Positions 1 through 37,809 of a DNA stretch of 37,809 bases are shown here, piece after piece (positions within the stretch are counted from its first letter, which is position 1; every line of letters starts with the position of its first letter). This stretch comes from a virus. Taxonomy: Duplodnaviria > Heunggongvirae > Uroviricota > Caudoviricetes. The stretch lies in the IMG/VR virus record IMGVR_UViG_2657245124_000003. One strand, written 5' to 3'. The notes beneath the pieces were generated by a model. It saw nothing but the letters and a program-made list of their open reading frames with translations, did no database searches and was not told where the DNA came from. Made by a program: the position numbers and the translations under genes.

Positions 1-266
1 ATATCGTTACTGCGGCGCAGTTCACGATTTTCACGCTCCAGCTCTTTCAGACGCTGACGTTCAGCGGTGGTGAGCCCACCATCACCGCCCCCGGTATCCC
101 GCTCATGCTGGCGAACCCAGACGCGCAGAGTCTCTGGCGTACAGCCAATCTTTGGAGCAATGGAACAAATTGCCGCCCATTGTGAGTCATATTCGCCCTG
201 ACTTTCCAGAACCATACGAACTGCCCGTTGACGGACTTCGGGGGAAAAACGAGTATTTTTAGTCAT
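1..266 (-). CDS. IS3-family transposase OrfA (partial, runs off window edge)
   Basis: ATG at 264-266 (minus); translation [89 protein letters not shown] matches IS629/IS3411-type OrfA from memory. Confidence 0.85.
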
Positions 267-320
267 CCTGTTTACCTCTTTCTCAGGAAGTTTAGTCTCC
301 AGGATTCCCGGGGCGGTTCA
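1..320 (-). mobile_element. IS3-family insertion sequence (IS629/IS1203-like), terminal part; element continues beyond window start
   Basis: Reverse complement of 253-320 reads TGAACCGCCCCGGGAATCCTGGAGACTAAACTTCCTGAGAAAGAGGTAAACAGGATGACTAAAAATAC, which I recognise as the IS629-type terminal inverted repeat plus orfA start; the orfA product begins [32 protein letters not shown]... with the RELRRSNDI leucine-zipper region. Confidence 0.85.
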
Positions 321-651
321 TTCTTTCCCGATAAGTAGCAAACATATTTTTGTCAAACTGAGAAGCAAATGGATCTCCCAGCCTGGAACAAATCGCCTCA
401 AGTTTGACTTTGCGCTCTGCACCAGAGGACAAGGTTTTACCGTACATCTCAAACCAACGAGCAATCAACTCAGAAAGACGAGGACCAGAACCATCTTGAA
501 ACTCGTCTCCAACTCTACTATTCATTAAACGGCGCTCATAAGAGAGCGCCTCACTTTTTGTCGCAAACTGTTTACGTATGCGTTTTCCCGATGCCCCGTA
601 GGGATAACATTCGCAAAGCCATTTACCTGATGGAATCTTACGAACCGACAT
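321..651 (-). pseudogene. int: P2-type tyrosine integrase, N-terminal ~110 codons only, interrupted by the IS element
   Basis: ORF 292..651 starts MSVRKIPSGKWLCECYPYGASGKRIRKQFATKSEALSYERR..., resembling the P2 Int N-terminus (GKRIRRKFDKKSEA...RLSEL...); the reading frame runs into the IS terminal repeat at 320, so the last codons (NRPGNPGD) are IS-encoded. Confidence 0.75.
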
Positions 652-656
652 TTTAG

Positions 657-1004
657 TTACTTATCACATAAATCAAATGCAGCCTTAGTGACATCCCCCA
701 GACTCTTTTTTAACCCTGGGGCGGCATCATTATCTAGCCAAAATGGATTATTGTTATCTAACGGTAACGCACCAAATGTTTTACCTTTTATTCGAGCCAA
801 ACCTGTAAGTGCATATAACTTATTATCGTCAAAATTCATCACATAAGGATTACCATCAAGACACTGTAATTGAACCTCATCAGTATTAAATGGCCATACC
901 CCATTGAAACTCTCACGTTCAATAGTTTTAAAAGGCATTGCGAGGGCGGAAAAAGAAAACATAGATAAAAAAGTAACTAATAGTTGAACCTTTTTTACTT
1001 TCAT
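657..1004 (-). CDS. small secreted/periplasmic protein of unknown function (signal peptide, two Cys)
   Basis: 115 aa; N-terminus MKVKKVQLLVTFLSMFSFSALA is a typical Sec signal peptide; AT-rich codon usage unlike the phage core. Confidence 0.5.
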   Translation of the reverse strand: MKVKKVQLLVTFLSMFSFSALAMPFKTIERESFNGVWPFNTDEVQLQCLDGNPYVMNFDDNKLYALTGLARIKGKTFGALPLDNNNPFWLDNDAAPGLKKSLGDVTKAAFDLCDK

Positions 1005-1033
1005 ATCATTACCTCAATTTAGCTCAAGTAAGA

Positions 1034-1684
1034 TTACAAATTAAAAAACGCCCTAGAAATAACACCTCCTACCAAAACCCCTACGCAGATAAAGAATATT
1101 ATTTCTTTTGGATAAAGTCGGATTAATTCTGAAGCACGAAGTCGGACTTCTGGTAAGGTCGAACTCTCTGTGTGGCTTGATGCCGATTGTTGCTCTAACC
1201 ACGACAATGCAGACTGTAACTGAGAACGAGTAAGATCGTTTAAACGTCCTGTACCGAAATTGATATGGCAATACCGCAGAAGTTTTTGTCGAAGTCCACA
1301 GTCTTCACTGTTACGTAGTAATAAACTTACAAGAGCCTTACAGGCATCATGATCTTTACATCGCTCAAGCATTGCATGCAGAAAACTCTCCGCTGTTTTA
1401 TATTGATTTACTGTCATATCATCAATACCAGCTACACCAATCTCCGCATGTACTTTTTGCCAAATAATAAACGCTTCAGTATTGCTAGCTTCTGCAATAG
1501 CAGCAACCAAGCTATTTAGCTCCTTACGCTGAGCCTTAAGCAAAGGGCGATCGTCATCATCATTATTCGAAGGGATTGCGATATTGACGGTCTGAGAACC
1601 ATCATATCGCTCTATCTGAATATTCTTTTCGTGAAAATCACGCCCAGCAACGCGATTGTTTGAACCGTTTGAGTTGACGGCCAT
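1034..1684 (-). CDS. tail-anchored membrane protein of unknown function (candidate prophage exclusion/cargo protein)
   Basis: 216 aa; soluble N-terminal domain and a single C-terminal hydrophobic helix (IIFFICVGVLVGGVISRAFF); AT-rich; sits directly downstream of the repressor on the same strand. Confidence 0.5.
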   Translation of the reverse strand: MAVNSNGSNNRVAGRDFHEKNIQIERYDGSQTVNIAIPSNNDDDDRPLLKAQRKELNSLVAAIAEASNTEAFIIWQKVHAEIGVAGIDDMTVNQYKTAESFLHAMLERCKDHDACKALVSLLLRNSEDCGLRQKLLRYCHINFGTGRLNDLTRSQLQSALSWLEQQSASSHTESSTLPEVRLRASELIRLYPKEIIFFICVGVLVGGVISRAFFNL

Positions 1685-1699
1685 GTCACCTCCCTACTA

Positions 1700-2104
1700 T
1701 CACCTACCCTTAGTTTCGTTATAGTCACGACCAGCGATACGGTTTTTACCACCAGAAATATTTAACTCACGTCCTGATGGCTGAGTTTCCTTTTCACTGA
1801 TCGCACCTTTTAAAGCCCCAATCACCGCGTTTTTCACATCTAACGAAGCTGCTCGAAAGCGAGTAATCAACTCCTGCTCATCATCGTTATAAGTTTCAGG
1901 TGAGTGAATTCCCAACACAACATACTGAACATCAAGGCCAAAACGAGACAGCGCTGCCAAATACGCAGCATCAGGAAAGCTATCTCCTTTCTCATATCTA
2001 AGCTGAGTTAGCTTTTTGACTCCACCAATGTCGCTCATGGCAACTTGACTAAGTCCCAATCTTTCCCTTTCCTCACGCAACCGCTGACCAATATCATTTT
2101 TCAT
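1700..2104 (-). CDS. CI-type prophage repressor (XRE-family HTH)
   Basis: 134 aa; N-terminus IGQRLREERERLGLSQVAMSDIGGVKKLTQLRYEKG is a classic XRE helix-turn-helix; transcribed divergently from the early operon, as for P2 C / 186 cI. Confidence 0.7.
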   Translation of the reverse strand: MKNDIGQRLREERERLGLSQVAMSDIGGVKKLTQLRYEKGDSFPDAAYLAALSRFGLDVQYVVLGIHSPETYNDDEQELITRFRAASLDVKNAVIGALKGAISEKETQPSGRELNISGGKNRIAGRDYNETKGR

Positions 2105-2119
2105 ACAAAAACCTTGACA

Positions 2120-2137
2120 GGTATCTTTTTTGATACC
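2120..2137. promoter_or_regulatory. palindromic operator candidate in the repressor/early divergent promoter region
   Basis: ggtatc-tttttt-gatacc perfect inverted arms, immediately after a TTGACA hexamer at 2114-2119, in the 75-bp gap between repressor start and first early gene. Confidence 0.35.
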
Positions 2138-2179
2138 AAAATGATTTCACGAGCTATTAGATGATCACAATATACCACT

Positions 2180-2386
2180 ATGAAACAAGTTCTTCACGAT
2201 ACCAGATCACGCATTCCGCGTAACACCGCCACAGGTCCAAGACTGGCACTTCGGCTGTCCCTCGAGGAGCGAGCCGTCATTGATGAAATGGCAGCTAAAG
2301 AACAACGCTCATCCTCTAACATGGCGCGCATGATCTTCCTTCGCGGCCTAGAGCTAACCCAGAAAGAACAAAACAAATCTTCCTGA
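2180..2386 (+). CDS. small early regulatory protein (first gene of early operon; possible ribbon-helix-helix)
   Basis: 68 aa, position equivalent to cox/apl/cro; LSLEERAVIDEMAAKEQRSSSNMARMIFLRGLE resembles small RHH-type regulators. Function inferred from position only. Confidence 0.4.
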   Translation: MKQVLHDTRSRIPRNTATGPRLALRLSLEERAVIDEMAAKEQRSSSNMARMIFLRGLELTQKEQNKSS

Positions 2387-2402
2387 TCAGGAGGCTAGTG
2401 GG

Positions 2403-2606
2403 ATGTCAGGTATAACCATCAATATCAATGTGAATGCCCCCTATGTATCCCTGCAGAAATATGCAGAGATAACAGGTATCCCTCTTAATACATGCAAAAA
2501 GATGTTGGCTGACGGTCGAATTATTATCCGCCCCAAACGCGCCAAAATGGAAAAGCCTGAAGTAAACCTTGTGGCGATGTTAAAAGACGCTTTGGCTAAC
2601 AGCTAA
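2403..2606 (+). CDS. Cox/Apl-like small HTH protein (excisionase/early regulator candidate)
   Basis: 67 aa; YVSLQKYAEITGIPLNTCKKMLADGRI has the look of a Cox/Xis-type HTH. Confidence 0.4.
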   Translation: MSGITININVNAPYVSLQKYAEITGIPLNTCKKMLADGRIIIRPKRAKMEKPEVNLVAMLKDALANS

Positions 2607-2627
2607 AACAATGAACAGAGCACCATC

Positions 2628-2978
2628 ATGAAAAAAAACGCTAATAATCCATACTCCAAATTTCGTAATGGCGTAGAACGCCATGTACACCACGTCGCTA
2701 CCTGTGCATCACGTAGTAACAGTCGCTATAACCTGAACGAGACGCACGCAACACCGGATGGCCACGCTGTAAAACAAATCGGCGAGCATGCCTGGCTGAT
2801 TGAGAAAGCTGGAATCGTGGTCCACAAATGCCCACGCAATCCGTTTACCGGAAACCGCATTTTTGCATTGAACTGCGGCGACAATCACTTCGGGCAGGAT
2901 TTCACATTATACGAAGCACTTCGCACGGTTGATCGTCTGCTTCGCGGGCAAAGTTTTATTAAACAGGCTGATTTATAA
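2628..2978 (+). CDS. hypothetical early-region protein (His/Cys-rich)
   Basis: 116 aa ORF in the early operon; no confident family assignment. Confidence 0.4.
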   Translation: MKKNANNPYSKFRNGVERHVHHVATCASRSNSRYNLNETHATPDGHAVKQIGEHAWLIEKAGIVVHKCPRNPFTGNRIFALNCGDNHFGQDFTLYEALRTVDRLLRGQSFIKQADL

Positions 2979-2988
2979 CAGGTGCTTT

Positions 2989-3267
2989 ATGACCAAAGAG
3001 CATGCACAAGGTGTATTTATCCGTTTTATTGATTTTCGCGGTGAACTGTTATTACGCGCATCAGCCATTGACGGAGTTGTTCCATCCGAAAAAAACGCAG
3101 CTACTTACGTTTATCTGAACGGTACGCGCCTGACTGTGGAGCTTCCGTACCAGACCGTACGAGAAATCATTAGCGAAGCTGAAAAGGCACGTCAGGTTAA
3201 TGGCGATGAACCCTATATCGAAATTATTTGTATGGATTCAGAAGCTGAAATTCAGAAAGCAGATTAA
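2989..3267 (+). CDS. hypothetical early-region protein
   Basis: ORF 2929..3267; internal ATG at 2989 (MTKEHAQGVF...) avoids overlap with the upstream gene. Confidence 0.4.
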   Translation: MTKEHAQGVFIRFIDFRGELLLRASAIDGVVPSEKNAATYVYLNGTRLTVELPYQTVREIISEAEKARQVNGDEPYIEIICMDSEAEIQKAD

Positions 3268-3278
3268 AGGGCGTTGCG

Positions 3279-3521
3279 ATGGGCAAAGAATATAAAACTC
3301 TCATTAACAAAGCACTTGAACGATTTTATTTTCGCTTAAGTGCATCAGGCGCTCATGCTGAACATGCAGCCCGTGACTCATTGACCAGGGCAATCCGGAG
3401 TTTGTATGACGTTGCTTTTTACGCTGATGATCTGGATGCACTGAACGAACTTTCCGAGCTGATCTGTGCCGCAGAATGCGGGGAACACATTGAACCGTAT
3501 AAGCTGGGGAATATCGCATGA
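3279..3521 (+). CDS. hypothetical early-region protein
   Basis: 80 aa ORF, same strand and tightly packed with its neighbours. Confidence 0.4.
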   Translation: MGKEYKTLINKALERFYFRLSASGAHAEHAARDSLTRAIRSLYDVAFYADDLDALNELSELICAAECGEHIEPYKLGNIA

Positions 3522-3631
3522 GTATATTTATCTCATGGCTTGTTCTGATTATTTCGGTGGCCTGCGCCATTGGGATTATGCGAATTATTCATTCAGTAAA
3601 AAAGATTGAACGCTTTTTCACTGACAAATAA
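3518..3631 (+). CDS. small hydrophobic protein (37 aa), below the ORF-track size cut-off
   Basis: ATG at 3518 overlaps the upstream stop (gcATGA); translation MSIFISWLVLIISVACAIGIMRIIHSVKKIERFFTDK has one predicted TM helix. Confidence 0.3.
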   Translation: MSIFISWLVLIISVACAIGIMRIIHSVKKIERFFTDK

Positions 3632-3723
3632 TAGCTTAAACAAAACACCAGATTAAACCCGAAAACCTGAAAACTATCCGCATTCGCGGAGGTATTCGCA
3701 CACGTAAATAACGGAGATATAAA

Positions 3724-4140
3724 ATGAACGCAAAAGAAAAAAATATTATCAATACATTAAAAATAGTGTCAGCAGAGCAAGACAAGCTGTCCAGGGCAGC
3801 CCAGAAAGATAATCAACATATGGCAGCGCTTTACGCACTGACCATCGCAATAGCCACCTCTGAAGCAGCCAAAATTATTGAGGAACAGGGCAAAGAAATC
3901 GACACTCTTAAAACACAGTCAACAGTTGCAGCCATGAATCCGTCCAGCATTGGACGCCGCATTTACATTCTTGGTTCGGCAATAATGACGCAATACACCA
4001 TTATTGCCGAACTGCACGGCAACTACCTGATAACGCCTTACCACACAAAAGAGTCAGAGCTTCTGACAAATCTCCGCCTGATAGAACGATCTCAAGCTGT
4101 ATTCATTGATGACGCGCAACGTGCCGTATTTCACGCATAG
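3724..4140 (+). CDS. hypothetical early-region protein
   Basis: 138 aa ORF preceded by GGAGAT ribosome-binding site. Confidence 0.4.
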   Translation: MNAKEKNIINTLKIVSAEQDKLSRAAQKDNQHMAALYALTIAIATSEAAKIIEEQGKEIDTLKTQSTVAAMNPSSIGRRIYILGSAIMTQYTIIAELHGNYLITPYHTKESELLTNLRLIERSQAVFIDDAQRAVFHA

Positions 4141-4163
4141 GGTTACTGGACAAAGGGGGCGCA

Positions 4164-4367
4164 ATGGCAATTAAGCATTTTCCCATCATTCGCTTTACCT
4201 CCAGAGGGCGCGAATACGAGGTCGACGAACGCCTGATTACCACTATCGACAAACATCGTTCAGAAAAGGATGCACACCACATCTACCTCACTGACGGCAC
4301 TTACTTCTGCGCCACCAACGTGGCGCGGGTGAATCTTATCCGACAGGTACAGGAGCCACGCAAATGA
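4164..4367 (+). CDS. hypothetical early-region protein
   Basis: 67 aa ORF; stop overlaps the next start. Confidence 0.4.
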   Translation: MAIKHFPIIRFTSRGREYEVDERLITTIDKHRSEKDAHHIYLTDGTYFCATNVARVNLIRQVQEPRK

Positions 4368-4630
4368 CCATTCTGGACTACATCACTACACATCCGGGTT
4401 GTAGCGGCGGAGAAATCGCCGCAGCACTGAACACCCCAACCACAGCTATTAATGCTGAGTTACGCCGACTTTGGCGCAGCGGCTTAGTCATCAGAACAAA
4501 CCGCAGCACAGGTGGTCGCGCTCGCAAAACTGGAGGCCAGGCTTCTTACCACGTAAACCCGATGCCGTTCGGGTGTAGCAATCCACTTACTCACATGTTT
4601 AACCAGCTACTGAAGGAAGCCAGAACATGA
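4364..4630 (+). CDS. putative winged-helix DNA-binding protein
   Basis: 88 aa; ILDYITTHPGCSGGEIAAALNTPTTAINAELRRLWRSGLV looks like a winged-helix/MarR-type fold. Confidence 0.4.
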   Translation: MTILDYITTHPGCSGGEIAAALNTPTTAINAELRRLWRSGLVIRTNRSTGGRARKTGGQASYHVNPMPFGCSNPLTHMFNQLLKEART

Positions 4631-4926
4631 GCACCATCAACCACCAGAAGCTACGCGAACTGGCATTTGCCCTGCAACGAATGGCAACTCCTCAAAAATT
4701 ACTGGCATTTCGCGTAATGCTCTCGCCGTCTGCTGTGCTGGCACTGCTGGATCAGCTGGAGCACGCCAAAACCACGGCTCCTGCCATTCGCCTGACGCTC
4801 CATCATGAAATCGCTGATTTCTGCGCAACGCTGGGGGCACCTGGCGAACCGGAAACGCCGGAAGCAATGCAGCAAGAGCTGCTGCAACGCATTGACAAGG
4901 TTTTTGATTTTTTTCTGAACCAGTAA
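4627..4926 (+). CDS. hypothetical early-region protein
   Basis: 99 aa ORF, translationally coupled to the preceding gene. Confidence 0.4.
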   Translation: MSTINHQKLRELAFALQRMATPQKLLAFRVMLSPSAVLALLDQLEHAKTTAPAIRLTLHHEIADFCATLGAPGEPETPEAMQQELLQRIDKVFDFFLNQ

Positions 4927-4944
4927 GAAACCAGAACATGCACA

Positions 4945-5072
4945 CACAAAAAAACCGCTTGCCATGTCGCAATCAGTCAGGTTACATTTCCGCTGCACCT
5001 CACAAAACGGGTGTCGGGTTTCGCAGCCTGCTGACTACACAAGCGCACAACCGCGCCAGCGGTTTTTTTGTG
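4945..5072. repeat. 14-bp perfect inverted repeat pair bracketing a structured non-coding segment
   Basis: cacaaaaaaaccgc at 4945-4958 and its exact reverse complement gcggtttttttgtg at 5059-5072; the six-frame ORFs across 4938-5555 overlap in all frames and look spurious. Confidence 0.5.
5051..5070 (+). terminator. intrinsic terminator-like hairpin with T-run
   Basis: ccgc-gcca-gcgg stem-loop followed by seven T at 5063-5069, downstream of the 4627..4926 gene. Confidence 0.45.
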
Positions 5073-5248
5073 CGTACTGTATTGCCACGTTTTTTTCGCG
5101 TCAGAATTATGGCGGGGCGTACGGGGCCGACTTCGGTCGGGCCGGGTTCTTGTGTAGCCGGTACTGCGAACCTCGTACGTCTCGCCACCCACAGTTTCGC
5201 AGCTCTGGATGGTGAGTTTTCACAACTTACTACACAAGGGGCCACACC

Positions 5249-5479
5249 ATGGCAAACCGCAAACCACACCGCGCTATCGCGGAGCGTCGTCACATCCAGA
5301 CTGAAATCAACCGCAGACTTTCCCGCGCATCACGCGTCGCGCAAATCATGCACATCAATATGCTGCATGAGCGCAGCCACGCACTATCAAACATTTATTC
5401 CGCCTCTGTTTACAGCTATCTGGCGAATGATCTGCACGAGCTTCAACAGCTCATCCAGCAGCAAAACAAACACCATTAA
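5249..5479 (+). CDS. hypothetical small protein upstream of gpA
   Basis: 76 aa ORF; basic N-terminus. Confidence 0.35.
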   Translation: MANRKPHRAIAERRHIQTEINRRLSRASRVAQIMHINMLHERSHALSNIYSASVYSYLANDLHELQQLIQQQNKHH

Positions 5480-5551
5480 TTCCTGTTCCGGGCCTTTCCT
5501 GCACCTTGCGGCGGGAGGCCTTCGCACATCTGTAACAAGAGGATTGCCGCA

Positions 5552-5917
5552 ATGATTCTCGCCAACGACTTTCTTGAATACCTGCTCAACACAGAACGTG
5601 ATCTTGCCGCTCGCGTGCGTGATCGTTATGACATGTACCTGAAATCCCTGCCTGTACCGCAACTCGCTGACGGAAAAATTGTTATTGATGGTCGCTACAT
5701 GATCGACAGCCACGAGGGAAATTACAGGCTTTACCGCATTGAAGGTGGCACCCCGTCCGTTATTGGCATTTACCAGCGCCCATCCTCTGCAATCGTCGAT
5801 GTGATTGCCGACAGCATCCGCATCACACATCGCCATGCCGACACAGAAGACACCGTGCTGGAAATTCAGCGGCTGGCTACCGTCTGCCGCGACACCCTGA
5901 ATGGCATGACGAAGTAA
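5552..5917 (+). CDS. hypothetical protein upstream of gpA
   Basis: 121 aa ORF immediately preceding the replication gene. Confidence 0.45.
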   Translation: MILANDFLEYLLNTERDLAARVRDRYDMYLKSLPVPQLADGKIVIDGRYMIDSHEGNYRLYRIEGGTPSVIGIYQRPSSAIVDVIADSIRITHRHADTEDTVLEIQRLATVCRDTLNGMTK

Positions 5918-5923
5918 ATCACT

Positions 5924-8749
5924 ATGACGGCAGAGTACATCAGGGACTGGCAACAACCGCGCCACGCCGTGGGGCGTGAAGGAACGGGGATCCCCGCTCC
6001 TGAATCCGCGCTTTCCTCCTGGCTGGATGCCTACCGGGCAGAGAACGAACGCCGCCAGGAAATGGCTGATGCGGCGTTCTCCGCCACGCCGCTGGGCAAC
6101 CTGATTAATAAAAGCCTGGACGCACAGGAAAAACAGGACAAAACCATCACACTGGCAGGAGACGCCAGAAAACAGGCACGAGGCGCGGTGGATGAAGCCA
6201 TGGCCTCGCTGCACCTGCTGCCGTCCTATCTGCGCGATCCGCTTATTCGCCACCTCTCCTTCCTGCGCAAAAAACAGGAAGCCGATCGCCGGAAAGGCAA
6301 AAAGAGCTGGCAGGCGGAACGCTATGCACGCGGAACCCTGCGCAAAATATTCGAACGTCTGGATCGCACTGACGGACACTGGCTGACACCGGGTTATCGC
6401 TCCCTTGCCGGACGCGAACGCCTGGACGATTTGCTTTACCTGCCGCAGCTCAACAAACACCAGATACAGACGCTGGCCACCATGACGGCGGCGATGTTCA
6501 GCAGCACCTTCGAAAAACTCTGCGATGGCTTTGGCGCGACCGATGGCGAGCTGACCATGGATGTAACGCTGAAGGCGTATCAGATGCTGGCCCGCATGGC
6601 GTTACACCTGCACGCCATGCCTCCACATTATGACGCACTGACAACAGACAAAGACCGGAGGAACGAACCAGACACGGAGCTGCTGCCGGGCGCAATCCTT
6701 CGCCTGACCTGTGCGGAATGGTGGAAACGCAAACTGTGGCTGTTACGTTGCGAGTGGAGAGAAGAACAACTCCGCGCCGCCTGTCTGGTTTCCAGAAAAA
6801 CATCACCCTATCTGAGCCAGGACGCGTTAAGCGAGTTTCGCGCACAGCGCGAGAAAACACGCGATTTCCTGAAAAGTTTCATGCTAGAAAATGAAGACGG
6901 GTTCACGATTGATCTCGAGACGGTGTATTACGCGGGAGTAAGTAACCCGGTTCACCGTAAGGCAGAAATGATGGCCACCATGAAGGGACTGGAACTTCTG
7001 GCCGAAGCCCGTGGCGACAGAGCGGTGTTTCTGACTGTCACCTGCCCGTCAAAATACCACGCAACAACGGAGAACGGTCATCCGAACCCCAAATGGAACG
7101 GGGCCACCATGCGCGACTCCAGCGATTACCTGGTTAACACGTTTTTTGCGGCAGTCCGCAAAAAACTGAACCGCGACGGTCTGCGCTGGTATGGCATCCG
7201 CACGGTGGAGCCTCACCATGACGGCACCGTGCACTGGCATATGATGGTCTTTGCTCATCCGGAAGAAATCGACAGCATCGTGGCCATCACCCGCGATATT
7301 GCCATTCAGGAAGACCGCCACGAGCTGGGCAATGATATTACTCCGCGCTTTAAGGTGGAGTATGTCGACGGCTCAAAAGGCACACCAACCAGCTATATCG
7401 CGACCTACATCGGAAAAAACCTGGACAGCCGCGCCGTGGATGGCATCGACCCGAAAACGGGCAAGCCACGCGTTGACCACGAAACCGGAAAATCAATGGC
7501 CGAGAGCGTGGAACGCGCCATCGGCTGGGCGCGCCTTCACCGGGTCCGCCAGTTCCAGTTCTTTGGTATCCCCTCCCGTCAGGTGTGGCGTGAACTGCGC
7601 CGCCTTGCCAGCCAGATGGCACGCAACCCGGAAGGCCCGCAACGGCTGAAGGATGACGCAATGGACGCGGTACTCGCTGCCGCTGATGCCGGATGTTTTG
7701 CCACCTACATTGAGAAACAGGGTGGCGTACTTGTTCCACGCAAAGACTACCTGATTCGCACCGCCTACGACCTCGCAGATGAGCTGAACGATTACGGTGA
7801 ACAGAGCGTACAGATTTACGGGATCTGGTCGCCACTCATTGGGGAGTCTTCCCGCGTATGCACGCATCCGGATAACTGGAAGCTGGTAAGACGCAAACCG
7901 GAAGCGGAAGACAGCGCCCGCGAAAATGGTTTTGACCTTCAGGGCGGCCCTGCCGCCCCTTGGACTCGTGGCAATAACTGTCCCCGTGTACAGGAAACGG
8001 ACAACAACGGGGCAGAACAGCCGGAAGAACGGCCAGCACCGTGGCCGCAGCTCCCTGACGGCGTTGAAGTGAACGAATGGATGCGCTCACTGAAACGGCA
8101 CGAACGCCGGGCGCTGATGCGTTCGCTTCGTGACAAACAGGCAAAAAACAGCAGTGATGAAATGCAGAGCTGGACACAGAGCCGCAAACAGCAGCGGCCT
8201 TTGCCTGATAACCACGAATTACTCGCTAAAGAATGGCGGGAGTCTGCCGAATCTCTCGGCCTGCATATCGGTGAACAGCAGATGCAGCACCTGCTACGGG
8301 GCGGCAGCCTGTACGTTGACGGCAGCATCATTGCACCGCAGGGATATGAAATTGTACGCAAACCGGATACCCGCCCGGACAGCCGAATCACGCAGCTCTG
8401 GCAGCACCTGAGCCGTAATCACGGCGTAAGCAGCACGGAGATCCGCCATAACCCGGTCGCCAGCTATCTGGAGCAGCTCGGGGCATCAGACCCCGAAGCC
8501 GCCGCACGCCTGGCATCCACAATTCAGCAGGACCAGAACACCATGAAAACTCCCGTTACCGTGCTTTCTGACATGCTGCGCGCCATCCGTGACACAGAGC
8601 ACGCACAAAGAATCAATGAAACCACTGAACGCGCACGCCGCAAGGCTACTTTGCTCCAAAAGAGAGGCAAACAGCACTTTAGTAATCAAAATGATGATGA
8701 GAAAAAACAATTACAAAGTTGGATATGCCTTTTCCATCATGAGGGATGA
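5924..8749 (+). CDS. A: P2 gpA-type rolling-circle replication initiator/endonuclease
   Basis: 941 aa; HUH motif (HDGTVHWHMMVF) and catalytic tyrosine region (PTSYIATYIGKN) typical of P2 A; longer than P2 A at the C-terminus. The true start may be downstream of 5924. Confidence 0.8.
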   Translation: MTAEYIRDWQQPRHAVGREGTGIPAPESALSSWLDAYRAENERRQEMADAAFSATPLGNLINKSLDAQEKQDKTITLAGDARKQARGAVDEAMASLHLLPSYLRDPLIRHLSFLRKKQEADRRKGKKSWQAERYARGTLRKIFERLDRTDGHWLTPGYRSLAGRERLDDLLYLPQLNKHQIQTLATMTAAMFSSTFEKLCDGFGATDGELTMDVTLKAYQMLARMALHLHAMPPHYDALTTDKDRRNEPDTELLPGAILRLTCAEWWKRKLWLLRCEWREEQLRAACLVSRKTSPYLSQDALSEFRAQREKTRDFLKSFMLENEDGFTIDLETVYYAGVSNPVHRKAEMMATMKGLELLAEARGDRAVFLTVTCPSKYHATTENGHPNPKWNGATMRDSSDYLVNTFFAAVRKKLNRDGLRWYGIRTVEPHHDGTVHWHMMVFAHPEEIDSIVAITRDIAIQEDRHELGNDITPRFKVEYVDGSKGTPTSYIATYIGKNLDSRAVDGIDPKTGKPRVDHETGKSMAESVERAIGWARLHRVRQFQFFGIPSRQVWRELRRLASQMARNPEGPQRLKDDAMDAVLAAADAGCFATYIEKQGGVLVPRKDYLIRTAYDLADELNDYGEQSVQIYGIWSPLIGESSRVCTHPDNWKLVRRKPEAEDSARENGFDLQGGPAAPWTRGNNCPRVQETDNNGAEQPEERPAPWPQLPDGVEVNEWMRSLKRHERRALMRSLRDKQAKNSSDEMQSWTQSRKQQRPLPDNHELLAKEWRESAESLGLHIGEQQMQHLLRGGSLYVDGSIIAPQGYEIVRKPDTRPDSRITQLWQHLSRNHGVSSTEIRHNPVASYLEQLGASDPEAAARLASTIQQDQNTMKTPVTVLSDMLRAIRDTEHAQRINETTERARRKATLLQKRGKQHFSNQNDDEKKQLQSWICLFHHEG

Positions 8750-8934: not shown

Positions 8935-9780
8935 ATGACAAAGCCTTCTCATTTTAGAACCCCTCTTCGTTATCCGGGAGGTAAGGCAAAATTCTTGCCA
9001 CATATTGAACAAATACTCCGCAACAATGATCTCATTGGTGGATGTTATGCTGAACCTTATGCAGGTGGAGCCGGTGTAGCATTAGGTTTGCTCCTTAACG
9101 GTCTTGTTGAAAATATCTTCATAAATGATATTGATCCTGCCCTTTATTCTTTTTGGTTTGCAGTGGTTAATCATAACGATCTGTTATGTGAAATGATTGA
9201 TGAAGTTCCTGTGACTATTGAAAATTGGCATACTCAAAAGGAGATACTCCTAAACAATGATAAATATAGTATGCTTGAAGTCGCATTATCAACTTTCTTT
9301 TTAAATAGAACAAACCGTTCAGGAATACTTAAGGCTGGCGTTATTGGAGGGAAAGAACAAAAAGGACCATGGAAGTTAGATGCAAGATTCAACAAAAAAG
9401 AGTTAATTAAAAGGATTGAACTAATTGGTGCATATAAGGAGAAAATTTACGTATCGAATTTTGATGCTGTAGATTTTCTGCTACACCAAAAAGCATTGCT
9501 ACCCCAAAATAGTCTAATATATCTTGATCCACCTTATTATGTTAAAGGAGCAGAGTTATATAGAAATTTTTATAAACATGATGATCATGTAAAAATCGCT
9601 AATACACTACGGGAAATTCAACTACCTTGGGTTGTGTCTTATGACAATGTGCCTGAAATAAAAAGCATATATCATGAATTCAACATGACTGATTATACGC
9701 TTAATTATACTGCACAAGATAAGAAAAAAGGTCTAGAAATTATCATTTATAATCATGGTATAAAAATCCCTGACATTTAA
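8935..9780 (+). CDS. D12-class N6-adenine DNA methyltransferase (Dam-like)
   Basis: 281 aa; motifs YPGGK, EPYAGGAG (FxGxG SAM-binding), FLNRTNRSG and DPPYY (motif IV) in the order characteristic of Dam-family methyltransferases; strongly AT-rich compared with flanking phage genes. Confidence 0.8.
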   Translation: MTKPSHFRTPLRYPGGKAKFLPHIEQILRNNDLIGGCYAEPYAGGAGVALGLLLNGLVENIFINDIDPALYSFWFAVVNHNDLLCEMIDEVPVTIENWHTQKEILLNNDKYSMLEVALSTFFLNRTNRSGILKAGVIGGKEQKGPWKLDARFNKKELIKRIELIGAYKEKIYVSNFDAVDFLLHQKALLPQNSLIYLDPPYYVKGAELYRNFYKHDDHVKIANTLREIQLPWVVSYDNVPEIKSIYHEFNMTDYTLNYTAQDKKKGLEIIIYNHGIKIPDI

Positions 9781-9797
9781 ATTTAAGGATGATATAG

Positions 9798-11495
9798 ATG
9801 ATTAAAGAAATTAGTTTTAAAAAATTTAAGAAACTGATAGATATTGACTTCTCATTCAATGAAGACATCAATATAATATCAGGAACCAATGGGACATGTA
9901 AGACAACATTGCTTCATTTAATTAGCAATGGTTTCCAAATGCCACCATCTCGATCACAAAATTATTCAAATAGTAATTGTGTTAGAGTTATAAAATCTAT
10001 AAACAAAATAGCCAACCCCAAAATGGAAGCAATTGTTAGGGAATCAAAAAATTACACCGATCCGGCAGAGGGAACAAAAGGTGTGTTATTTTCTATTAAC
10101 TATTTGGATCATAGCACACTAGACTTCAGAAAGCACAACTCAAAAAATCCAGACGAAGCGCAACGGTATGCTATCAAACCAGTATACCCACGCGGAAAAG
10201 AAAAACAATCACTTCCAGCTAAACCAGTTTTATATCTTGGATTATCGCGACTATTCCCGATTGGTGAAACTAAAGACGACGCCCTTACAAAAATTCCGTT
10301 AAACCTACCAGAAGAGTATGTTGGTTATATATCGAAAATATATAATGAACTTTTGGGCATTAATATTATAAATATAGAATCAAACAATATCGGAGATTTT
10401 AAAGCTGGCCCATTATTTGATACCGATAACCCAGCAATTGATTCTAATACCATATCATCCGGGGAAGACAATATATTCATTATAATCAAGGCATTAGTTA
10501 GCCTTAGGTATTATTTTGAATCACTTATTCAATCCACTGATCAAAAAGAAAGCATTCTGTTAATAGATGAATTTGATGCCACTTTACATCCTTCTTTACA
10601 GATAAGATTATTAGATAAAATTTATCAATACGCAAAAGATTATAAGATTCAAGTATTTTTCACAACGCACAGTCTGACATTGCTAGAATATGCTTTTCAT
10701 AAAAAATACCATGTTGTCTATCTAATTAACAATATTACAAAGGCTCTGCTTTTAGATAATCCTGACATATTAAAAATAACAATGTATCTGAAAACACAAA
10801 CAAAGGATGAGATATACACAAGGAACAAGATACCAGTTTTCACGGAAGATGAAGAAGCTCGCTTTTTATTTAATGAAATACTTGGTTATTGGATAAGCAA
10901 ATATCCAAATTTTGCTATAGTTAGTAATTCATTTCACTTAATTGATTGTTTCATTGGTGCAGACAATTTAAAAACTATTTTTAATGATTCTCATCTTAAG
11001 GAAACCTCGTTAAAATCAATTTGTATTCTTGATGGAGATCACAGCCCTGAGGATCAGAGAGGAATTATATCACTGCCGGGAGAAAAAGCTCCAGAACAAT
11101 TGATATTTGAGCATTGTGAGCACCTTTATAATACCGACGACTCTTCCTTCTGGGAAAATCAGGATATAATTAACAATGGTTTTTCGAAAGAGTTATACTT
11201 ACTCAAGATACGTCCTCAACTACAATCAATTGAAACTGAAATTCAGAAAAGAAAAGACAACCATGAGTCTACATCCGGTTTAAGAAGAAAATTAAATAAG
11301 AAAATATTCAATCAGCATATTGAATTCTTTAGAATGATTACAAGAAACTGGTTAGACAAACCAGAAAATCAGAAATCTCTCCAGTATTTTTACAATGGAT
11401 TACGATCCTTATTCTACCGGGTTACACCAACAAACGGCATTGACAGAAAAATTTGGGATTTTGACTATAACAAAATCATTAAAGAGGATAAATAA
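9798..11495 (+). CDS. ABC-type ATPase with C-terminal TOPRIM-like region (OLD-family / fused PARIS-like nuclease candidate)
   Basis: 565 aa; Walker A GTNGTCKTT, signature-like SSGEDN, Walker B LLIDEFDATLHP, H-loop FFTTHS; C-terminal region has a conserved acidic patch (VFTEDEE) followed by a DxD-type motif (ILDGDH), consistent with TOPRIM/DUF4435. Only 17 bp from the methyltransferase stop, same strand. Confidence 0.6.
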   Translation: MIKEISFKKFKKLIDIDFSFNEDINIISGTNGTCKTTLLHLISNGFQMPPSRSQNYSNSNCVRVIKSINKIANPKMEAIVRESKNYTDPAEGTKGVLFSINYLDHSTLDFRKHNSKNPDEAQRYAIKPVYPRGKEKQSLPAKPVLYLGLSRLFPIGETKDDALTKIPLNLPEEYVGYISKIYNELLGINIINIESNNIGDFKAGPLFDTDNPAIDSNTISSGEDNIFIIIKALVSLRYYFESLIQSTDQKESILLIDEFDATLHPSLQIRLLDKIYQYAKDYKIQVFFTTHSLTLLEYAFHKKYHVVYLINNITKALLLDNPDILKITMYLKTQTKDEIYTRNKIPVFTEDEEARFLFNEILGYWISKYPNFAIVSNSFHLIDCFIGADNLKTIFNDSHLKETSLKSICILDGDHSPEDQRGIISLPGEKAPEQLIFEHCEHLYNTDDSSFWENQDIINNGFSKELYLLKIRPQLQSIETEIQKRKDNHESTSGLRRKLNKKIFNQHIEFFRMITRNWLDKPENQKSLQYFYNGLRSLFYRVTPTNGIDRKIWDFDYNKIIKEDK

Positions 11496-14984: not shown

Positions 14985-15138
14985 TGCTCCCCCTGAGTAA
15001 TTACAGGAAGATTACCCGCGCGCGAAACCGTTCTCCTTAACCCCCTGTTCTGCCTGTTTTCTTACAACAAAAGCCCTTTGTATCAGCCTGTTACGCTTTG
15101 CCATCATGACTGAAGAACCAGTCAGAGGGGCAAAAACT

Positions 15139-15975
15139 ATGGCTAATGAAAAAAAGACATCCCGCAAAAAGTTTCGCGTGGCTGTCTCCGGTGTAACGGC
15201 AGACGGGCGCGAAATCAACGGCGACATGCTGAAAGCTGCCGCCACCAGTTATAACCCGTCCGTTTATGGTGCACGTGTGAATATTGAGCACATCCTGTCA
15301 CCACTCCCCGGTAGCGAGTTTTCCGCTATGGGCGATGTTGTGGGGTTGAGCACCGAAGACATAACCGATGGCCCGCTGGCAGGTCGCACGGCACTGTATG
15401 CCGAAATTGAGCCGACCGCTCGCATGATGTCCCTGCTTAACGATGGTAAAAAAATTTACTCCAGTATTGAGCTGGAACCACAGTCAACCATCACGGGAGG
15501 CCCTTACCTGCGCGGGCTGGCAATGACCGACACCCCCGCCAGCCTGGGCACGGAACGTCTGGCCTTTGCGGCACAACAACGTATGCAACTGATGACATTC
15601 AACTGTCAGCAGGGAGACGTGGCGATGTTTACCGCCGCTATGGAGTCAGAACTTATCGAACTCACCGAACAACGTCAGGAGGAAGGCACCCAGTGGTTTA
15701 ACCGCGTTATGGGGATTATTGGCCGTGGCCGCAAAGCGGATGACGCCAGTTTCTCCCGTATTCAGGAAGTGGTGGAAGGTGTCGCAACGTCACAGGCCGA
15801 CATTATCGACCGTTTTAATGTGCTGGAAACCCGCCATCAGCAGGACAGCCAGAAAATCACTTTACTGACCACAGAGCTGGCAGAACTGAAGGAAAAACTG
15901 CGCACGCAGGACGGCGATCCGCAGAACCGGTTCACCGCAACAGGCGCAGCCTCCGACCAGCTGGCTGACTTCTGA
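15139..15975 (+). CDS. O: capsid scaffolding protein (P2 gpO-like)
   Basis: From internal ATG (MANEKKTSRKKFRVAVSGVTADGREINGDML...VYGARVNIEHIL), which aligns with the P2 O N-terminus (MAKKVSKFFRIGVEGDTCDGRVIS...VYGCRINLEHL). Confidence 0.75.
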   Translation: MANEKKTSRKKFRVAVSGVTADGREINGDMLKAAATSYNPSVYGARVNIEHILSPLPGSEFSAMGDVVGLSTEDITDGPLAGRTALYAEIEPTARMMSLLNDGKKIYSSIELEPQSTITGGPYLRGLAMTDTPASLGTERLAFAAQQRMQLMTFNCQQGDVAMFTAAMESELIELTEQRQEEGTQWFNRVMGIIGRGRKADDASFSRIQEVVEGVATSQADIIDRFNVLETRHQQDSQKITLLTTELAELKEKLRTQDGDPQNRFTATGAASDQLADF

Positions 15976-19814: not shown

Positions 19815-19956
19815 CCCACCCACATGGGGAAACCTCGGAATATGGGGCGACCGCCTTCTGGATGCACTGGAAACCTGTAACGCGGAGAAACGGGCCATTG
19901 CTGAACTGGATAAGAGAATAGCCGAACTGACACACCAGACGGGAGTAACACAATGA
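19675..19956 (+). CDS. o-spanin lipoprotein (LysC/Rz1-like)
   Basis: MNAPTLCLTLVLLTGCAG has a lipobox (LTGC); Pro-rich mature part; overlaps the i-spanin in another frame. Confidence 0.55.
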   Translation: MNAPTLCLTLVLLTGCAGTQNAPRPAPSVRLIPQTLTMPVTPPPFPDPPTWGNLGIWGDRLLDALETCNAEKRAIAELDKRIAELTHQTGVTQ

Positions 19957-21833
19957 CCAGTAAGAACTTTGCACTGATTACAGCCATGACACAGGCTGAA
20001 CTGACCCGGAAAGTGAATGAATATCTTGCGAAGGGGTGGCATCTTCAGGGGGACACACGGGTAGCTTACGAGCCCGGCACCCCGTGGTATCTCATGCAGG
20101 CCATGGTGGCCGATGGTGCCACCGAGACGCCCTCTGAGCCATTACCAAACAACAAGACGCCGGAATGGTACTACGTGGTTGTGCTTGCCGGGCAGTCCAA
20201 CGGCATGGCTTACGGTGAAGGGCTTCCGTTACCGGATTCTTACGATGCTCCGGATCCGCGCATTAAACAGCTGGCGCGCCGCAGTACGGTAACCCCGGGG
20301 GGAGAGGGTTGTACGTATAACGACATCATCCCGGCTGACCACTGTCTGCATGATGTGCAGGATATGAGTACGCTGAATCATCCGAAGGCGGACCTGAGCA
20401 AAGGTCAGTACGGCTGTGTGGGACAGGGACTTCATATTGCCAAAAAACTACTCCCGTATATCCCGAATAACGCGGGGATCCTGCTGGTACCATGCTGTCG
20501 TGGTGGTTCGGCATTCACTCAGGGCGCGGAGGGAACATTCAGTACGACCACGGGGGCCAGCCAGGATTCGGCGCGCTGGGGTGCGGGTAAGCCGTTATAT
20601 CAGGACCTGATCGCACGCACCAAAGCGGCATTACAGAAGAACCCGAAAAATGTGTTGCTGGCGGTGTGCTGGATGCAGGGCGAATTTGACATGAGCGCTG
20701 CCACCTACGCACAGCAACCGGACCTGTTCACGGCCATGCTGAAGCAGTTCCGTACTGACCTTTCCGGATTTAACGCGCAGTGCCATGGCGGCAGTGCTGC
20801 AGTTATACCGTGGATTTGTGGCGACACGACGTATTACTGGAAAAACACATACGGCACACAGTATGACTCCGTCTACGGCGCGTACAAAAACAGGGAGAGC
20901 GACAACGTTTTCTTTGTGCCGTTCATGACCGACGGTAACGGCAACAACACGCCCACCAACTTACCGGCAGAAGACCCGGATATTGCTGATGCAGGTTATT
21001 ACGGCGCGCAATCCCGTAGTAATGGTAATTGGGTATCGTCAAATCGTCCGACACATTTCAGTTCATGGGCGCGCAGGAGCATTATTTCGGATCGCCTGGC
21101 AACCGCTATTCTGAACGCTGTTGGTCGAACCAGCGCCTTCATCAGCGGTACCGCACCGGAGATTAAACCCTCGCCCGGCGGCGACACTCCATCGGGGCCG
21201 TCTGATGGTGACACATCCGTTCGTACAGTCTCCCTGCTGCCGACAGCCGGAGAGGCTGCTGCGCAGGGCTGGACCATCACCGGCGGCAGTGTTGCGCTGG
21301 AAGATGGTGTGTTTAAGGTTACCAAGCAGAGCAATAAAACTTGGTCCCTGATGCATCCGGTGGATGACGCAGTCTCCCTGCTGACACGGGGCGGCAGACT
21401 GAGCTGTAAGTTTCGACTGTCAGGCGCACTGACCAACAACCAGTTCGGTCTGGGAATTTATCTGTATACCGATGTAGCGTTACCTGACGTCGTGGCGATG
21501 ACCGGGACTGGTAACCCGTTCCTGATGTCGTTCTTCACCCAGACCACAGACGGCAAACTGAATCTGATGCATCACAAGAAAGCCGGAAACACAAAGTTGG
21601 GCGAGTTCGGGAATTACAGTAACGACTGGCAGACGCTGGAGCTGGTGTTCACCGCCGGCAGTGCCACGGTTACTCCGAAACTGAATGGAGTGGCTGGCCC
21701 GGCATTCCAGGTCATAAAAGACAGTCTGACACTGGGGCTGAATGCGCTGACGTTAACTGATATCACTAAAAATGCCGCGTACGGCGTCGATATCGGCAGC
21801 CTGGTGCTGGAAATCAATAATCCCGCAGTATAA
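19953..21833 (+). CDS. NanS-p-like esterase: N-terminal DUF1737 domain, SASA/SGNH-type carbohydrate esterase domain, C-terminal lectin-like domain
   Basis: 626 aa; N-terminus MTSKNFALITAMTQAELTRKVNEYLAKGWHLQG matches the DUF1737 pattern of prophage NanS-p proteins; LAGQSNGMAYGEG carries the GQSN block of sialate O-acetylesterases; inserted between the lysis cassette and tail-completion gene R. Confidence 0.6.
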   Translation: MTSKNFALITAMTQAELTRKVNEYLAKGWHLQGDTRVAYEPGTPWYLMQAMVADGATETPSEPLPNNKTPEWYYVVVLAGQSNGMAYGEGLPLPDSYDAPDPRIKQLARRSTVTPGGEGCTYNDIIPADHCLHDVQDMSTLNHPKADLSKGQYGCVGQGLHIAKKLLPYIPNNAGILLVPCCRGGSAFTQGAEGTFSTTTGASQDSARWGAGKPLYQDLIARTKAALQKNPKNVLLAVCWMQGEFDMSAATYAQQPDLFTAMLKQFRTDLSGFNAQCHGGSAAVIPWICGDTTYYWKNTYGTQYDSVYGAYKNRESDNVFFVPFMTDGNGNNTPTNLPAEDPDIADAGYYGAQSRSNGNWVSSNRPTHFSSWARRSIISDRLATAILNAVGRTSAFISGTAPEIKPSPGGDTPSGPSDGDTSVRTVSLLPTAGEAAAQGWTITGGSVALEDGVFKVTKQSNKTWSLMHPVDDAVSLLTRGGRLSCKFRLSGALTNNQFGLGIYLYTDVALPDVVAMTGTGNPFLMSFFTQTTDGKLNLMHHKKAGNTKLGEFGNYSNDWQTLELVFTAGSATVTPKLNGVAGPAFQVIKDSLTLGLNALTLTDITKNAAYGVDIGSLVLEINNPAV

Positions 21834-27587: not shown

Positions 27588-28064
27588 CTAAGCCGCCCTC
27601 ACGATATAGTTAAATGCAATATTGCGGGGGCGGGTTTCACTACCACCTGTGTTACCAATACTTCCTCGTGAATGAAGCGTTGGTGATGGAATCAAACTCC
27701 CTCCTGTATTTGTGGCATCAAGCCCCCTGCCTTGTGTATATGTTTTTTTGAAAATCGTAGCCAACTCCCATTCATCTTTTGTGTCATATCCATCGTTAGC
27801 TACAACAATATGGCGGTGTTTTTCCAACATCCCGTTTTGAATGCTCAATAAAGCGCGTGCCGCATCAATTCCTCGCCCATCATCCCAGCCACGGATAAAT
27901 TCTCCGCGTAAATCCGGTAATTTATTGGTGGGGTAGGCTTTTGCCAGTTTGGGGTACATTTCAGAAGAAAATGCTGCACCGTTACATTTCAGCCAGCCCG
28001 TTGGTGGTGTTGCTAAGGGCCATGGAACAGGCACACCAACGGGCAGTGCAGAGCCTTCCCCCAA
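27588..28064 (-). other. silent tail-fibre C-terminal cassette 1 (collar domain plus variable tip; no ATG start)
   Basis: Begins at the LGEGSALPVGVPVPWP... junction (TTG called as start), shares about 68 aa with the H collar region, then a unique tip, ending RPRNIAFNYIVRAA; crossover-like site TTCCCCCAAACCAACGTTTTCATGC at 28056-28080. Confidence 0.7.
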
Positions 28065-28074
28065 ACCAACGTTT

Positions 28075-28578
28075 TCATGCGGCTCTTACGATGTAATTGA
28101 ATGCAACGTTGCGAGGGCGAGTTTCTGTACCTACATTTCCACTAATTTTACCAAACTGTTTTATATTACGAGAGCTAATGGCTCGTAGTGAGGAAGGCAC
28201 CCTTAAACCGGGTTCGTCTGTTTTAACTATTCCCCCGTCCCCGTATGTAGCCAGTATTCCAGGGTTTAATCCTTCCCGTGCACTTTCCACGGCAAGTCCG
28301 TTCCCGGTCCATAATTCCATATAGTGTGCATGATCCAAAATTGTGTGTGGCTGCCAATTAAGCAAAGCGCGGCCAGCATCCACCCCGCGCCCATCATCCC
28401 AGCCGCGAATAAATTCTCCCCGTAAATCCGGTAATTTATTTGCGGGGTAGGCTTTTGCCAGTTTGGGGTACATTTCAGAAGAAAATGCTGCACCATTGCA
28501 TTTCAGCCAGCCCGTTGGTGGTGTGGCTGAGGGCCATGGAACGGGCACACCAACAGGCAGCGCAGAACCTTCCCCCAA
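28075..28578 (-). other. silent tail-fibre C-terminal cassette 2
   Basis: Same conserved N-terminal collar segment and C-terminal RPRNVAFNYIVRAA with a different middle region; crossover-like site at 28570-28594 overlapping the stop of cassette 3. Confidence 0.7.
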
Positions 28579-28588
28579 ACCAACGTTT

Positions 28589-29017
28589 TCATGCTGCCCT
28601 TACGATGTAATTAAACGCAATATTACGAGGACGAATGGTTACATAATTGACCCCATCACCTCGTGAAGGCCCTGCAAATGAAAAACGGGAAAAGCTTGGT
28701 TGGTTAGAAACAATTTGGTCATAGTTATTGATTGAATGACCAGACCCAATGTCGAAATTACCTCCGTAATGAGAAAAACTTGTACCATCCTGCCCTGAAA
28801 GCAGGGTACGTCCCGCATCAATCCCGCGCCCATCATCCCAGCCACGGATAAATTCACCGCGTAAATCCGGTAATTTATTGGTGGGATAAGCCCTTGCCAG
28901 TCTGGGATACATTTCAGAAGAAAATGCTGCGCCGTTACATTTCAGCCACCCCGTTGGTGGTGTTGCTGAGGACCACGGAACGGGCACACCAACGGGCAGC
29001 GCAGAGCCTTTCCCCAA
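28589..29017 (-). other. silent tail-fibre C-terminal cassette 3
   Basis: Same architecture; crossover-like site at 29009-29033. Confidence 0.7.
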
Positions 29018-29027
29018 ACCAACGTTT

Positions 29028-29591
29028 TCATGCTGCCCTTACGATGTAATTAAACGCAATGTTGCGTGGGCGGTTTTCGTTTGCAGTTGGAACAATTTTT
29101 GAAGCATCAAGGCCAATCACTTTTGGGTAAACAACGCCGTCTGTCCTTTCTGTCACCATACTTCTGACTAAGGAGAAATAACTATTGTTTGTTGAGGAAT
29201 TTAAAGGCACCACTGCCCCCTTAAACGAGCCTACTGATTCCCATATTGAATAATTTTCAGTGTTTACAGTCTTGAACTCACCATAGATATTACGTATGGC
29301 ATCACCTTGAGCGGATAATATTGTTCTCCCCGCATCCGCACTACGTCCATCATCCCAGCCACGAATAAATTCACCCCGTAAATCCGGTAATTTATTGGTG
29401 GGGTAAGCCTTTGCCAGTCCGGGATACATTTCAGAAGAAAATGCTGCGCCGTTACATTTCAGCCAGCCCGTTGGTGGTGTTGCTGAGGGCCACGGAACGG
29501 GCACACCAACAGGCAGCGCAGAACCTTCCCCCAAACCAACGTTTTCGTTTTTATCCCTACCTATACCAACTATGTATTTTTCACGAAACAA
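29028..29591 (-). other. silent tail-fibre C-terminal cassette 4
   Basis: Same architecture; the conserved segment starts at about 29534; crossover-like site at 29526-29551; the upstream extension to 29591 is probably not translated. Confidence 0.65.
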
Positions 29592-29605
29592 AGAGGATGT
29601 TTTTT

Positions 29606-30205
29606 ATGCAAATTGGCTATATTCGTGTGTCAACAAATGACCAGAACACGGATTTACAACGCAATGCACTGAACTGCGCAGGATGTGAACTGATTTTTGA
29701 AGATAAAATCAGCGGAACGAAATCAGCCAGACCGGGATTGAAAAAACTGCTCAGAACGCTATCAGAAGGAGATACGCTGGTTGTCTGGAAGCTGGACAGA
29801 CTGGGCAGAAGTATGAAACACCTGATCACGCTTATTGAGGAATTGCGGGAAAAAGGTGTTAATTTCCGTAGTCTGACGGACAGCATTGACACATCAACAC
29901 CCATGGGGCGTTTCTTTTTTCACGTCATGGGGGCTTTAGCCGAAATGGAACGTGAATTAATTGTAGAGCGTACACTGGCCGGGCTGGCAGCAGCACGCGC
30001 ACAAGGACGCATTGGCGGACGTCGCCCGAAGTTGACAAAAGAACAACACGAGCAAATAGCGAGGCTGATTAAAAACGGTCATGACAGGAAACAACTGGCG
30101 ATCATTTACGACATCGGCATATCGACGATTTATCGTTATCACCCTGTAGGCGATATACAGGCTGAAGAAACAACCAGGCAGACTCAGGAAAATGAAAACC
30201 GCTAA
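29606..30205 (+). CDS. serine recombinase, DNA invertase (Hin/Gin/Cin/Pin family)
   Basis: 199 aa; MQIGYIRVSTNDQNTDLQRNAL...VVWKLDRLGRSMKHLI...C-terminal HTH (GISTIYRY) is the resolvase/invertase signature with the catalytic Ser in the IRVST motif. Confidence 0.85.
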   Translation: MQIGYIRVSTNDQNTDLQRNALNCAGCELIFEDKISGTKSARPGLKKLLRTLSEGDTLVVWKLDRLGRSMKHLITLIEELREKGVNFRSLTDSIDTSTPMGRFFFHVMGALAEMERELIVERTLAGLAAARAQGRIGGRRPKLTKEQHEQIARLIKNGHDRKQLAIIYDIGISTIYRYHPVGDIQAEETTRQTQENENR

Positions 30206-30224
30206 TCTGACCATTAGCGGTTTT
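30195..30224. terminator. bidirectional hairpin between convergent invertase and gpU genes
   Basis: aaaaccgctaat-ctgacc-attagcggtttt, perfect 12-bp arms with A/T runs on both sides. Confidence 0.6.
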
Positions 30225-30231
30225 GCGTTAA

Positions 30232-30726: not shown

Positions 30727-30732
30727 GACTCC

Positions 30733-33576: not shown

Positions 33577-33795
33577 GCCAGCTAACCACTTCGCCGGGCG
33601 TCATCATGAAGATTTCGGCGGGCGACCAGTTAAAAATAACGGCAATATCTGCCACAAAGTCTTCTATGTGCTCAAAGCACACAACCGTGATCAGGCTTCC
33701 GTCGCCTGTTCGTTCTTCCCGCCAGAGTCCGCACCGCTCAAAAAATTTACGGCAACCGCACATAACTGAATAAAGTCACGGGATGCCATTTTTTT
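33527..33795 (-). CDS. gpE' extension, reached by programmed -1 frameshift from E (E+E' fusion)
   Basis: An A7 run on the sense strand (plus coordinates 33789-33795) lies where the -1 frame (ORF 33527..33763, extending upstream) is open and overlaps the T start, as in P2 E/E' and lambda G/GT. Confidence 0.4.
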
Positions 33796-34056: not shown

Positions 34057-34110
34057 CAGGAAACTCCTTTCAGTCAGAGGCGACGCACTGCGCCGCCTGC
34101 ATATTACTTA

Positions 34111-37709: not shown

Positions 37710-37809
37710 GGAAACCGCGACGGGGGAGCAATCCCATAAGCGCTAACTTAAGGGTTGTGGTATTACGCCTGATATGATTTAACGTGCCGATGAATTACTC
37801 TCACGATAA

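Follow-up and report, generated by a model that had tools for sequence, protein, structure and literature searches.

Why does the integrase gene at the left edge of this P2-like prophage stop short, and what does its loss mean for the prophage? The DNA that we analyzed, hereafter the window, is a stretch of 37,809 nucleotides that exact-protein look-up identified as the complete draft contig LIVH01000045.1 (37809 bp) of E. coli GCA_001420045.1. A first-pass annotation had described an integrase (int) frame that runs for about 110 codons from position 651 and passes directly into the terminal repeat of an IS element at position 320, and it had proposed that the prophage was likely immobilized. 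The ORF list, tblastn and a base-exact alignment agree on this interruption, and we consider the observation confirmed; the interpretation attached to it is partly supported, as set out below. The features on which the argument rests are collected in Table 1.

Table 1. Positions and strands of the features discussed, with the evidence for each
Feature	Position	Strand	Evidence
Left 320 bp of an IS3-family IS (IS629/IS1203/IS3411 group), ending at the contig edge	1..320	-	
5' part of orfA, 88 codons, HTH transposase N-terminus, running off the contig	1..266	-	Pfam HTH_Tnp_1, E 5.7e-13
IRL, reading TGAACCGCCCCGGGAATCCTGGAGA on the minus strand, with its outermost base at window 320	296..320	-	Comparison with IRR TGAACCGCCCCGGGTTTCCTGGAGAG
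Presumed target triplet, TTC (+ strand) / GAA (int strand)	321..323	.	Inferred from the AAC duplication in YD786
int codons 1-110 plus 1 nt	321..651	-	Amino acid identity to the 333-aa intact integrase
Chimeric ORF, 119 aa: 110 Int residues plus MNRPGNPGD from the junction and the IS	292..651	-	
Collar-domain cassettes	27588-28064, 28075-28578, 28589-29017, 29028-29591	-	Pfam
Serine invertase (Hin/Gin-type), tail-fibre switching	29606..30205	+	Pfam Resolvase, E 1.5e-51, and HTH_7
End of an IS4-family IS421/IS186-type element, last 74 nt	37736..37809	+	Homology to intact prophages stops at 37735

The interrupted integrase gene and the IS element within it

The ORF list of the window contains a 119-aa frame on the minus strand, at 292..651. 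By tblastn, its residues 1-110 are 100% identical in amino acid sequence to residues 1-110 of WP_001300279.1, a 333-aa 'phage integrase' present in E. coli AR_0013 and many other genomes, and its last eight residues and stop codon are encoded by the IS. GenBank holds this chimeric frame as KQJ27105.1, annotated merely as 'hypothetical protein'; as a point for annotation, the entry is an IS-truncated integrase.

The part of int retained in the window encodes the N-terminal arm-binding region and breaks off halfway through the core-binding (Int_N) domain. Pfam Int_N matches the fragment at residues 58-110 (E 3.5e-15), covering profile positions 4-56 of 100; in the intact integrase, Int_N extends over residues 58-162 and Phage_integrase lies in the C-terminal half. 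The first-pass annotation had stated that the fragment lacks the catalytic C-terminal domain, and this was borne out. The catalytic residues of the intact integrase are R204, H277, R280, H303 and Y312, and the break precedes every one of them. The R-H-R-H-Y tyrosine-recombinase domain is thus present in the intact allele but wholly absent from the window fragment, which stops at residue 110.

The gene had also been called a P2-type integrase. Residues 165-331 of the intact protein align end to end with the crystallised catalytic domain of the integrase of Haemophilus phage HP1 (1AIH; E 4.6e-75), and the closest phage integrases, at 52-56% identity, are those of the P2-like phages SopEPhi, PSP3 and ENT90. 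Along with the two Pfam matches, these comparisons support the assignment of the interrupted gene to the tyrosine integrases of the P2/HP1 family. The P2-like (Peduoviridae) genome carries the gene at its attL end, beside the immunity repressor; as in other members of the family, which share the catalytic domain, int adjoins attL downstream of a C-type repressor. It differs from them in several respects. Int shares only ~39% identity with its counterparts in Peduovirus and related E. coli P2-like phages, integration is into leuZ with a long, 124-bp identity segment, and two cargo genes separate the repressor from int.

There is no second integrase in the 37.8-kb window: searches with full-length Int by tblastn and with Pfam returned only the 110-residue fragment. 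The sole other recombinase gene is the serine invertase at 29606..30205, which is not an excision enzyme.

The sequence that follows the int fragment is the end of a known IS. Over all of its 320 nt, window 1-320 matches the left end of complete 1310-bp IS3-family copies in YD786 and other E. coli at 100% identity. The YD786 copy is 1310 bp long and annotated as 'IS3 family transposase, programmed frameshift'. A 3-bp direct repeat (AAC/AAC) lies on either side of it, and it ends in TGAACCGCCCCGGGAATCCTGGAGAC on the left and TGAACCGCCCCGGGTTTCCTGGAGAG, the IRR, on the right. Its termini conform to the IS3 type, in which the terminal inverted repeats are ~25 bp long and start with 5'-TG. Elements of the group are ~1310 bp long, and a -1 programmed frameshift joins their orfA (HTH) to orfB (DDE); the window shows 320 bp of its own copy, and the 1310-bp length and annotated frameshift are those of the YD786 copy. 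Within those 320 bp, orfA starts with an ATG at 266-264 on the minus strand, and the orfA fragment gives a partial match to NCBIfam transpos_IS3 (E 1.8e-8).

The element is also 98.8% identical to copies in O157 Stx2a phages, which we take to be IS629, the records themselves carrying no IS annotation, and copies in 5,518 E. coli records match it at 95-99%. A divergence of 4-5% separates IS629 subtypes and the isoforms IS1203 and IS3411 (PMC3271280). Because the 95-99% spread fits this published subtype divergence, the label 'IS629-like, IS3 family' given in the first-pass annotation is a fair one. IS629-type elements are common in E. coli prophages, which they favor as insertion sites and in which these sites vary most, and IS629 sites are described in the Sp5/stx2 prophages of O157 (PMC3271280). 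The IS629/IS1203/IS3411 insertions in the Sp and SpLE elements of O157:H7 involve the same type of element, 1310 bp long. Copies of the IS629 group have in common the TGAACCGCCCCGGG termini and orfA/orfB with a programmed frameshift, and the copy identical to ours over the 320 nt in the window has a 3-bp duplication. The site in the window, between int nt 331 and 332, differs from known prophage insertions of this group in that it is occupied in none of 5,426 complete E. coli genomes.

In the junction alignment, the IS terminus TGAACCGCCCCGGGAATCCTGGAGAC stops exactly at window 320, window 321 (position 4001 of locus L001) is the first base homologous to the intact int locus, and beyond this boundary the sequences are unrelated. 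The insertion point falls between nt 331 and 332 of the 1002-nt int, with the IS in the orientation of int, and the IS therefore sits inside the gene rather than downstream of a complete int frame. It splits the core-binding domain in half and parts the arm-binding N-terminus from the entire catalytic domain. An identical junction is present in an independently assembled run, in which a Logan contig from ERR15165683 matches the window at 100% over 7692 nt (window 292-7983). We conclude that the break in int is a base-exact IS terminus and not a chance resemblance.

The prophage, its relatives and the ends of the contig

The prophage carries a P2-like gene set, with gpA, portal, terminase, capsid through tail, gpD and ogr. 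Over 321-28076 and 29344-37735 the window is collinear with the prophage of AR_0013, at 98.2-99.8% identity, and all of the other annotated AR_0013 prophage genes (49 of 49, integrase excluded) align with it at full length and without gaps. Structurally, the window departs from AR_0013 only by carrying ~1.3 kb of additional, alternative tail-fibre cassettes, and int is the only broken gene in the window. The block from sheath through tube and tape measure to gpU is in the opposite orientation in the AR_0013 relative as well; this inverted block is the normal layout of the phage lineage and no rearrangement. The first-pass annotation had suggested that the loss of int fits with other rearrangements in the prophage, and this part of its interpretation fails against the collinearity with AR_0013 and the 49 full-length genes.

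Intact relatives sit in the tRNA-Leu gene leuZ, between yecA and the leuZ-cysT-glyW tRNA genes, and are flanked by an exact 124-bp direct (att) repeat (1068-1191 and 38827-38950 of locus L004) that consists of the last 55 nt of leuZ and the 69 nt that follow. On one ENA metagenome scaffold (L006, repeat at 3539-3662), the int and ogr sides meet through this repeat to form an attP junction; the lineage has therefore been seen in an excised or circular form. Many Logan and ENA contigs (L006-L015) carry int as two separate ORFs, of 132-184 aa and 143 aa, and the point at which the N-terminal one stops varies between contigs. The AR_0013 prophage, in which int is intact, has a portal pseudogene with an internal stop and a shortened gpD (portal and gpD regions, L004 13835-14881 and 36399-37252), whereas portal and gpD are both full length in the window. 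Members of the lineage have therefore been inactivated at different genes. The scaffold protein gpO (15106-15975) is ~80% identical to its AR_0013 counterpart and its neighbor genes are 99-100% identical, a local mosaic replacement.

Both ends of the contig stop inside multicopy IS elements. Contigs from short-read assembly typically break in multicopy repeats, and the apparent truncations at the window edges are assembly limits, not evidence of deletion. The first-pass annotation had noted that the window lacks the remainder of int. This stands, as tblastn finds no further int-like sequence there, but it reflects the end of the contig: because a draft contig that ends in a repeated IS cannot speak to what lies beyond, the missing remainder says nothing on whether that part is present in the genome. 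Other contigs of the same assembly most likely carry the remaining IS sequence, the 3-bp duplication, the 3' part of int and attL. Draft contig ends can in this way mimic gene loss.

At the right edge, the IS4-family element lies just past a hok-like gene, in a GC-rich palindrome or hairpin (37716-37735) that reads GACGGGGGAGCAATCCCCCGTC in intact relatives, and it cuts off attR and the final ~0.9-1 kb of the phage from the window. A related prophage in strain E06 has an annotated 'IS4-like element IS421 family transposase' at the same position, which suggests that the site after the hok-like gene is an IS insertion hot spot. We also considered whether the two flanking ISs form a composite transposon and rejected this, since they belong to different families (IS3 and IS4).

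Probable origin and consequences of the insertion

The explanation that we favor, and hold to be probable, is a single insertion of an IS629-group element into int that left a 'grounded' prophage. A 1310-bp element of this group would have transposed into int of a ~38-kb P2-like E. coli prophage, in the same orientation as int, and translation from the int start would then give a 119-aa product to which the catalytic domain is no longer joined. The insertion was probably a simple one. In that case, the far side is predicted to consist of the IS629 IRR, ...CCAGGAAACCCGGGGCGGTTCA, then GAA, then the int sequence GGCTATCTGGAGAATGG....

The junction could instead be one side of an IS-mediated deletion or inversion, or of recombination between two IS629 copies, with the 3' part of int, attL and perhaps chromosome on the yecA side deleted or relocated. 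The genome evidently has several IS629-type copies, because the contig breaks in the IS; the other end of the prophage is also interrupted by an IS; and neither the far junction nor its target duplication turned up in our searches. Probes of 1100 nt and then 100 nt found no sequence that spans the int/IS junction among the 5,426 complete E. coli genomes, pattern scans for the known junction gave no match in metagenome, GTDB genome or IMG/VR contigs, and the metagenome contigs scanned likewise gave none for the partner junction, predicted as the int side and the IS end with 0-8 nt between them. Exact look-up of the predicted IS-tagged ORFs of the int 3' remnant, allowing for 3- and 4-bp duplications and for partial genes at contig edges, returned none. 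Generic int remnants of 143 aa and 91 aa do occur in the protein collection; we rejected the 143-aa remnant as a product of the IS junction, as it traces to frameshifted int genes in other samples. However, these failed searches are weak evidence, because the scanned DNA collections hold no draft isolates and PGAP makes no protein for pseudogene remnants. The rest of the prophage, moreover, is intact and collinear, which favors a recent single event, and we regard a deletion or rearrangement as unlikely. The junction might also be artefactual, an IS read path having been wrongly joined during assembly to an int locus that is really intact; this idea draws on the nature of the window, a short-read draft contig ending in repeats. 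It is scarcely credible given that the break matches a genuine IS terminus to the base, that the same junction recurs in the independent ERR15165683 assembly, and that an intact int, being unrepeated in the window, would have assembled straight through.

It could also be that the insertion is real and the prophage is still mobile, either because a related P2-like prophage or a superinfecting phage provides a compatible Int in trans or because a catalytic fragment is re-expressed from the IS. Int can act in trans when the genome encodes a compatible integrase at another locus, and the trans-complementation of P2 int mutants is classical. E. coli genomes often hold several P2-like prophages, and integrases of the same cluster, which has 705 members, are widespread. 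Against this, the 37.8-kb contig has no second integrase, and the nearest phage integrases outside the lineage are at most 56% identical, which makes cross-specificity doubtful. A re-expressed catalytic fragment would lack the arm-binding domain and would not be expected to carry out arm-dependent excision, and the first in-frame start past the IS is a TTG that opens a frame of only 143 aa. We therefore consider continued mobility by either route quite improbable.

Under a single insertion into int, the prophage would be without a functional Int and, judging from its sequence, should have lost the ability to excise or re-integrate by itself, because the catalytic domain has been severed. P2-type prophages excise very rarely even with an intact int. 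The insertion appears to be recent, since the structural genes, head and tail included, and those for lysis, replication and immunity are all intact. Mutations in recombinase genes are a route to 'grounded' prophages, which become fixed in the chromosome once their excision recombinase is lost (PMC6379469). The grounded or cryptic prophages of K-12 (DLP12, e14, Rac and Qin) share with this one an inactivated integrase or att site, but they are heavily decayed, whereas here the other 49 genes are full length. The window prophage would thus be at the very first step of grounding.

Prophages with IS629 insertions are already well known, as are 'grounded' prophages with a defective integrase, and the event is an ordinary one. 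The locus is a clean example of grounding begun by an IS with all other genes intact, of little import beyond annotation. In surveys of prophages or in strain typing, an otherwise complete prophage of this kind should be scored as probably excision-defective and not as an active phage.

We also considered whether the 119-aa Int fragment, if expressed, might act as a dominant-negative binder of arm sites, its gene still lying downstream of the repressor operon. We judge this very improbable. If it were true, the fragment would hinder integration or excision of incoming or co-resident phages with the same att specificity, and the IS insertion would have gone beyond a null allele and created a small factor for exclusion or regulation.

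Cargo and tail-fibre genes

The two cargo genes between the repressor and int are on the int strand. The gene at 657-1004 encodes a DUF2511/YebY-like protein with a hydrophobic, signal-peptide-like N-terminus, and that at 1034-1684 encodes a membrane protein with a Flk_N domain; in the lysogen, both probably share a transcript with the repressor.

The invertible tail-fibre region (27588-30205) contains four alternative C-terminal cassettes with Collar domains on the minus strand, against a single tail-fibre cassette in AR_0013. The serine invertase adjoins these cassettes, and enzymes of its kind switch host range and do not excise prophages.

Between the lysis genes and gpR/gpS lies a gene for a 626-aa DUF6645 protein (19953-21833), for which PADLOC gave no match. 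A further pair of cargo genes (8935-11495) occupies the variable hot spot of P2 between gpA and the portal gene. One encodes a Dam-like methyltransferase that matches PADLOC PD-Lambda-5_B (E 9e-122), and the other a 565-aa AAA ATPase with matches only to generic ATPase-type defence proteins (PtuA, GajA, AriA and HEC-04). This pair may be a defence module.
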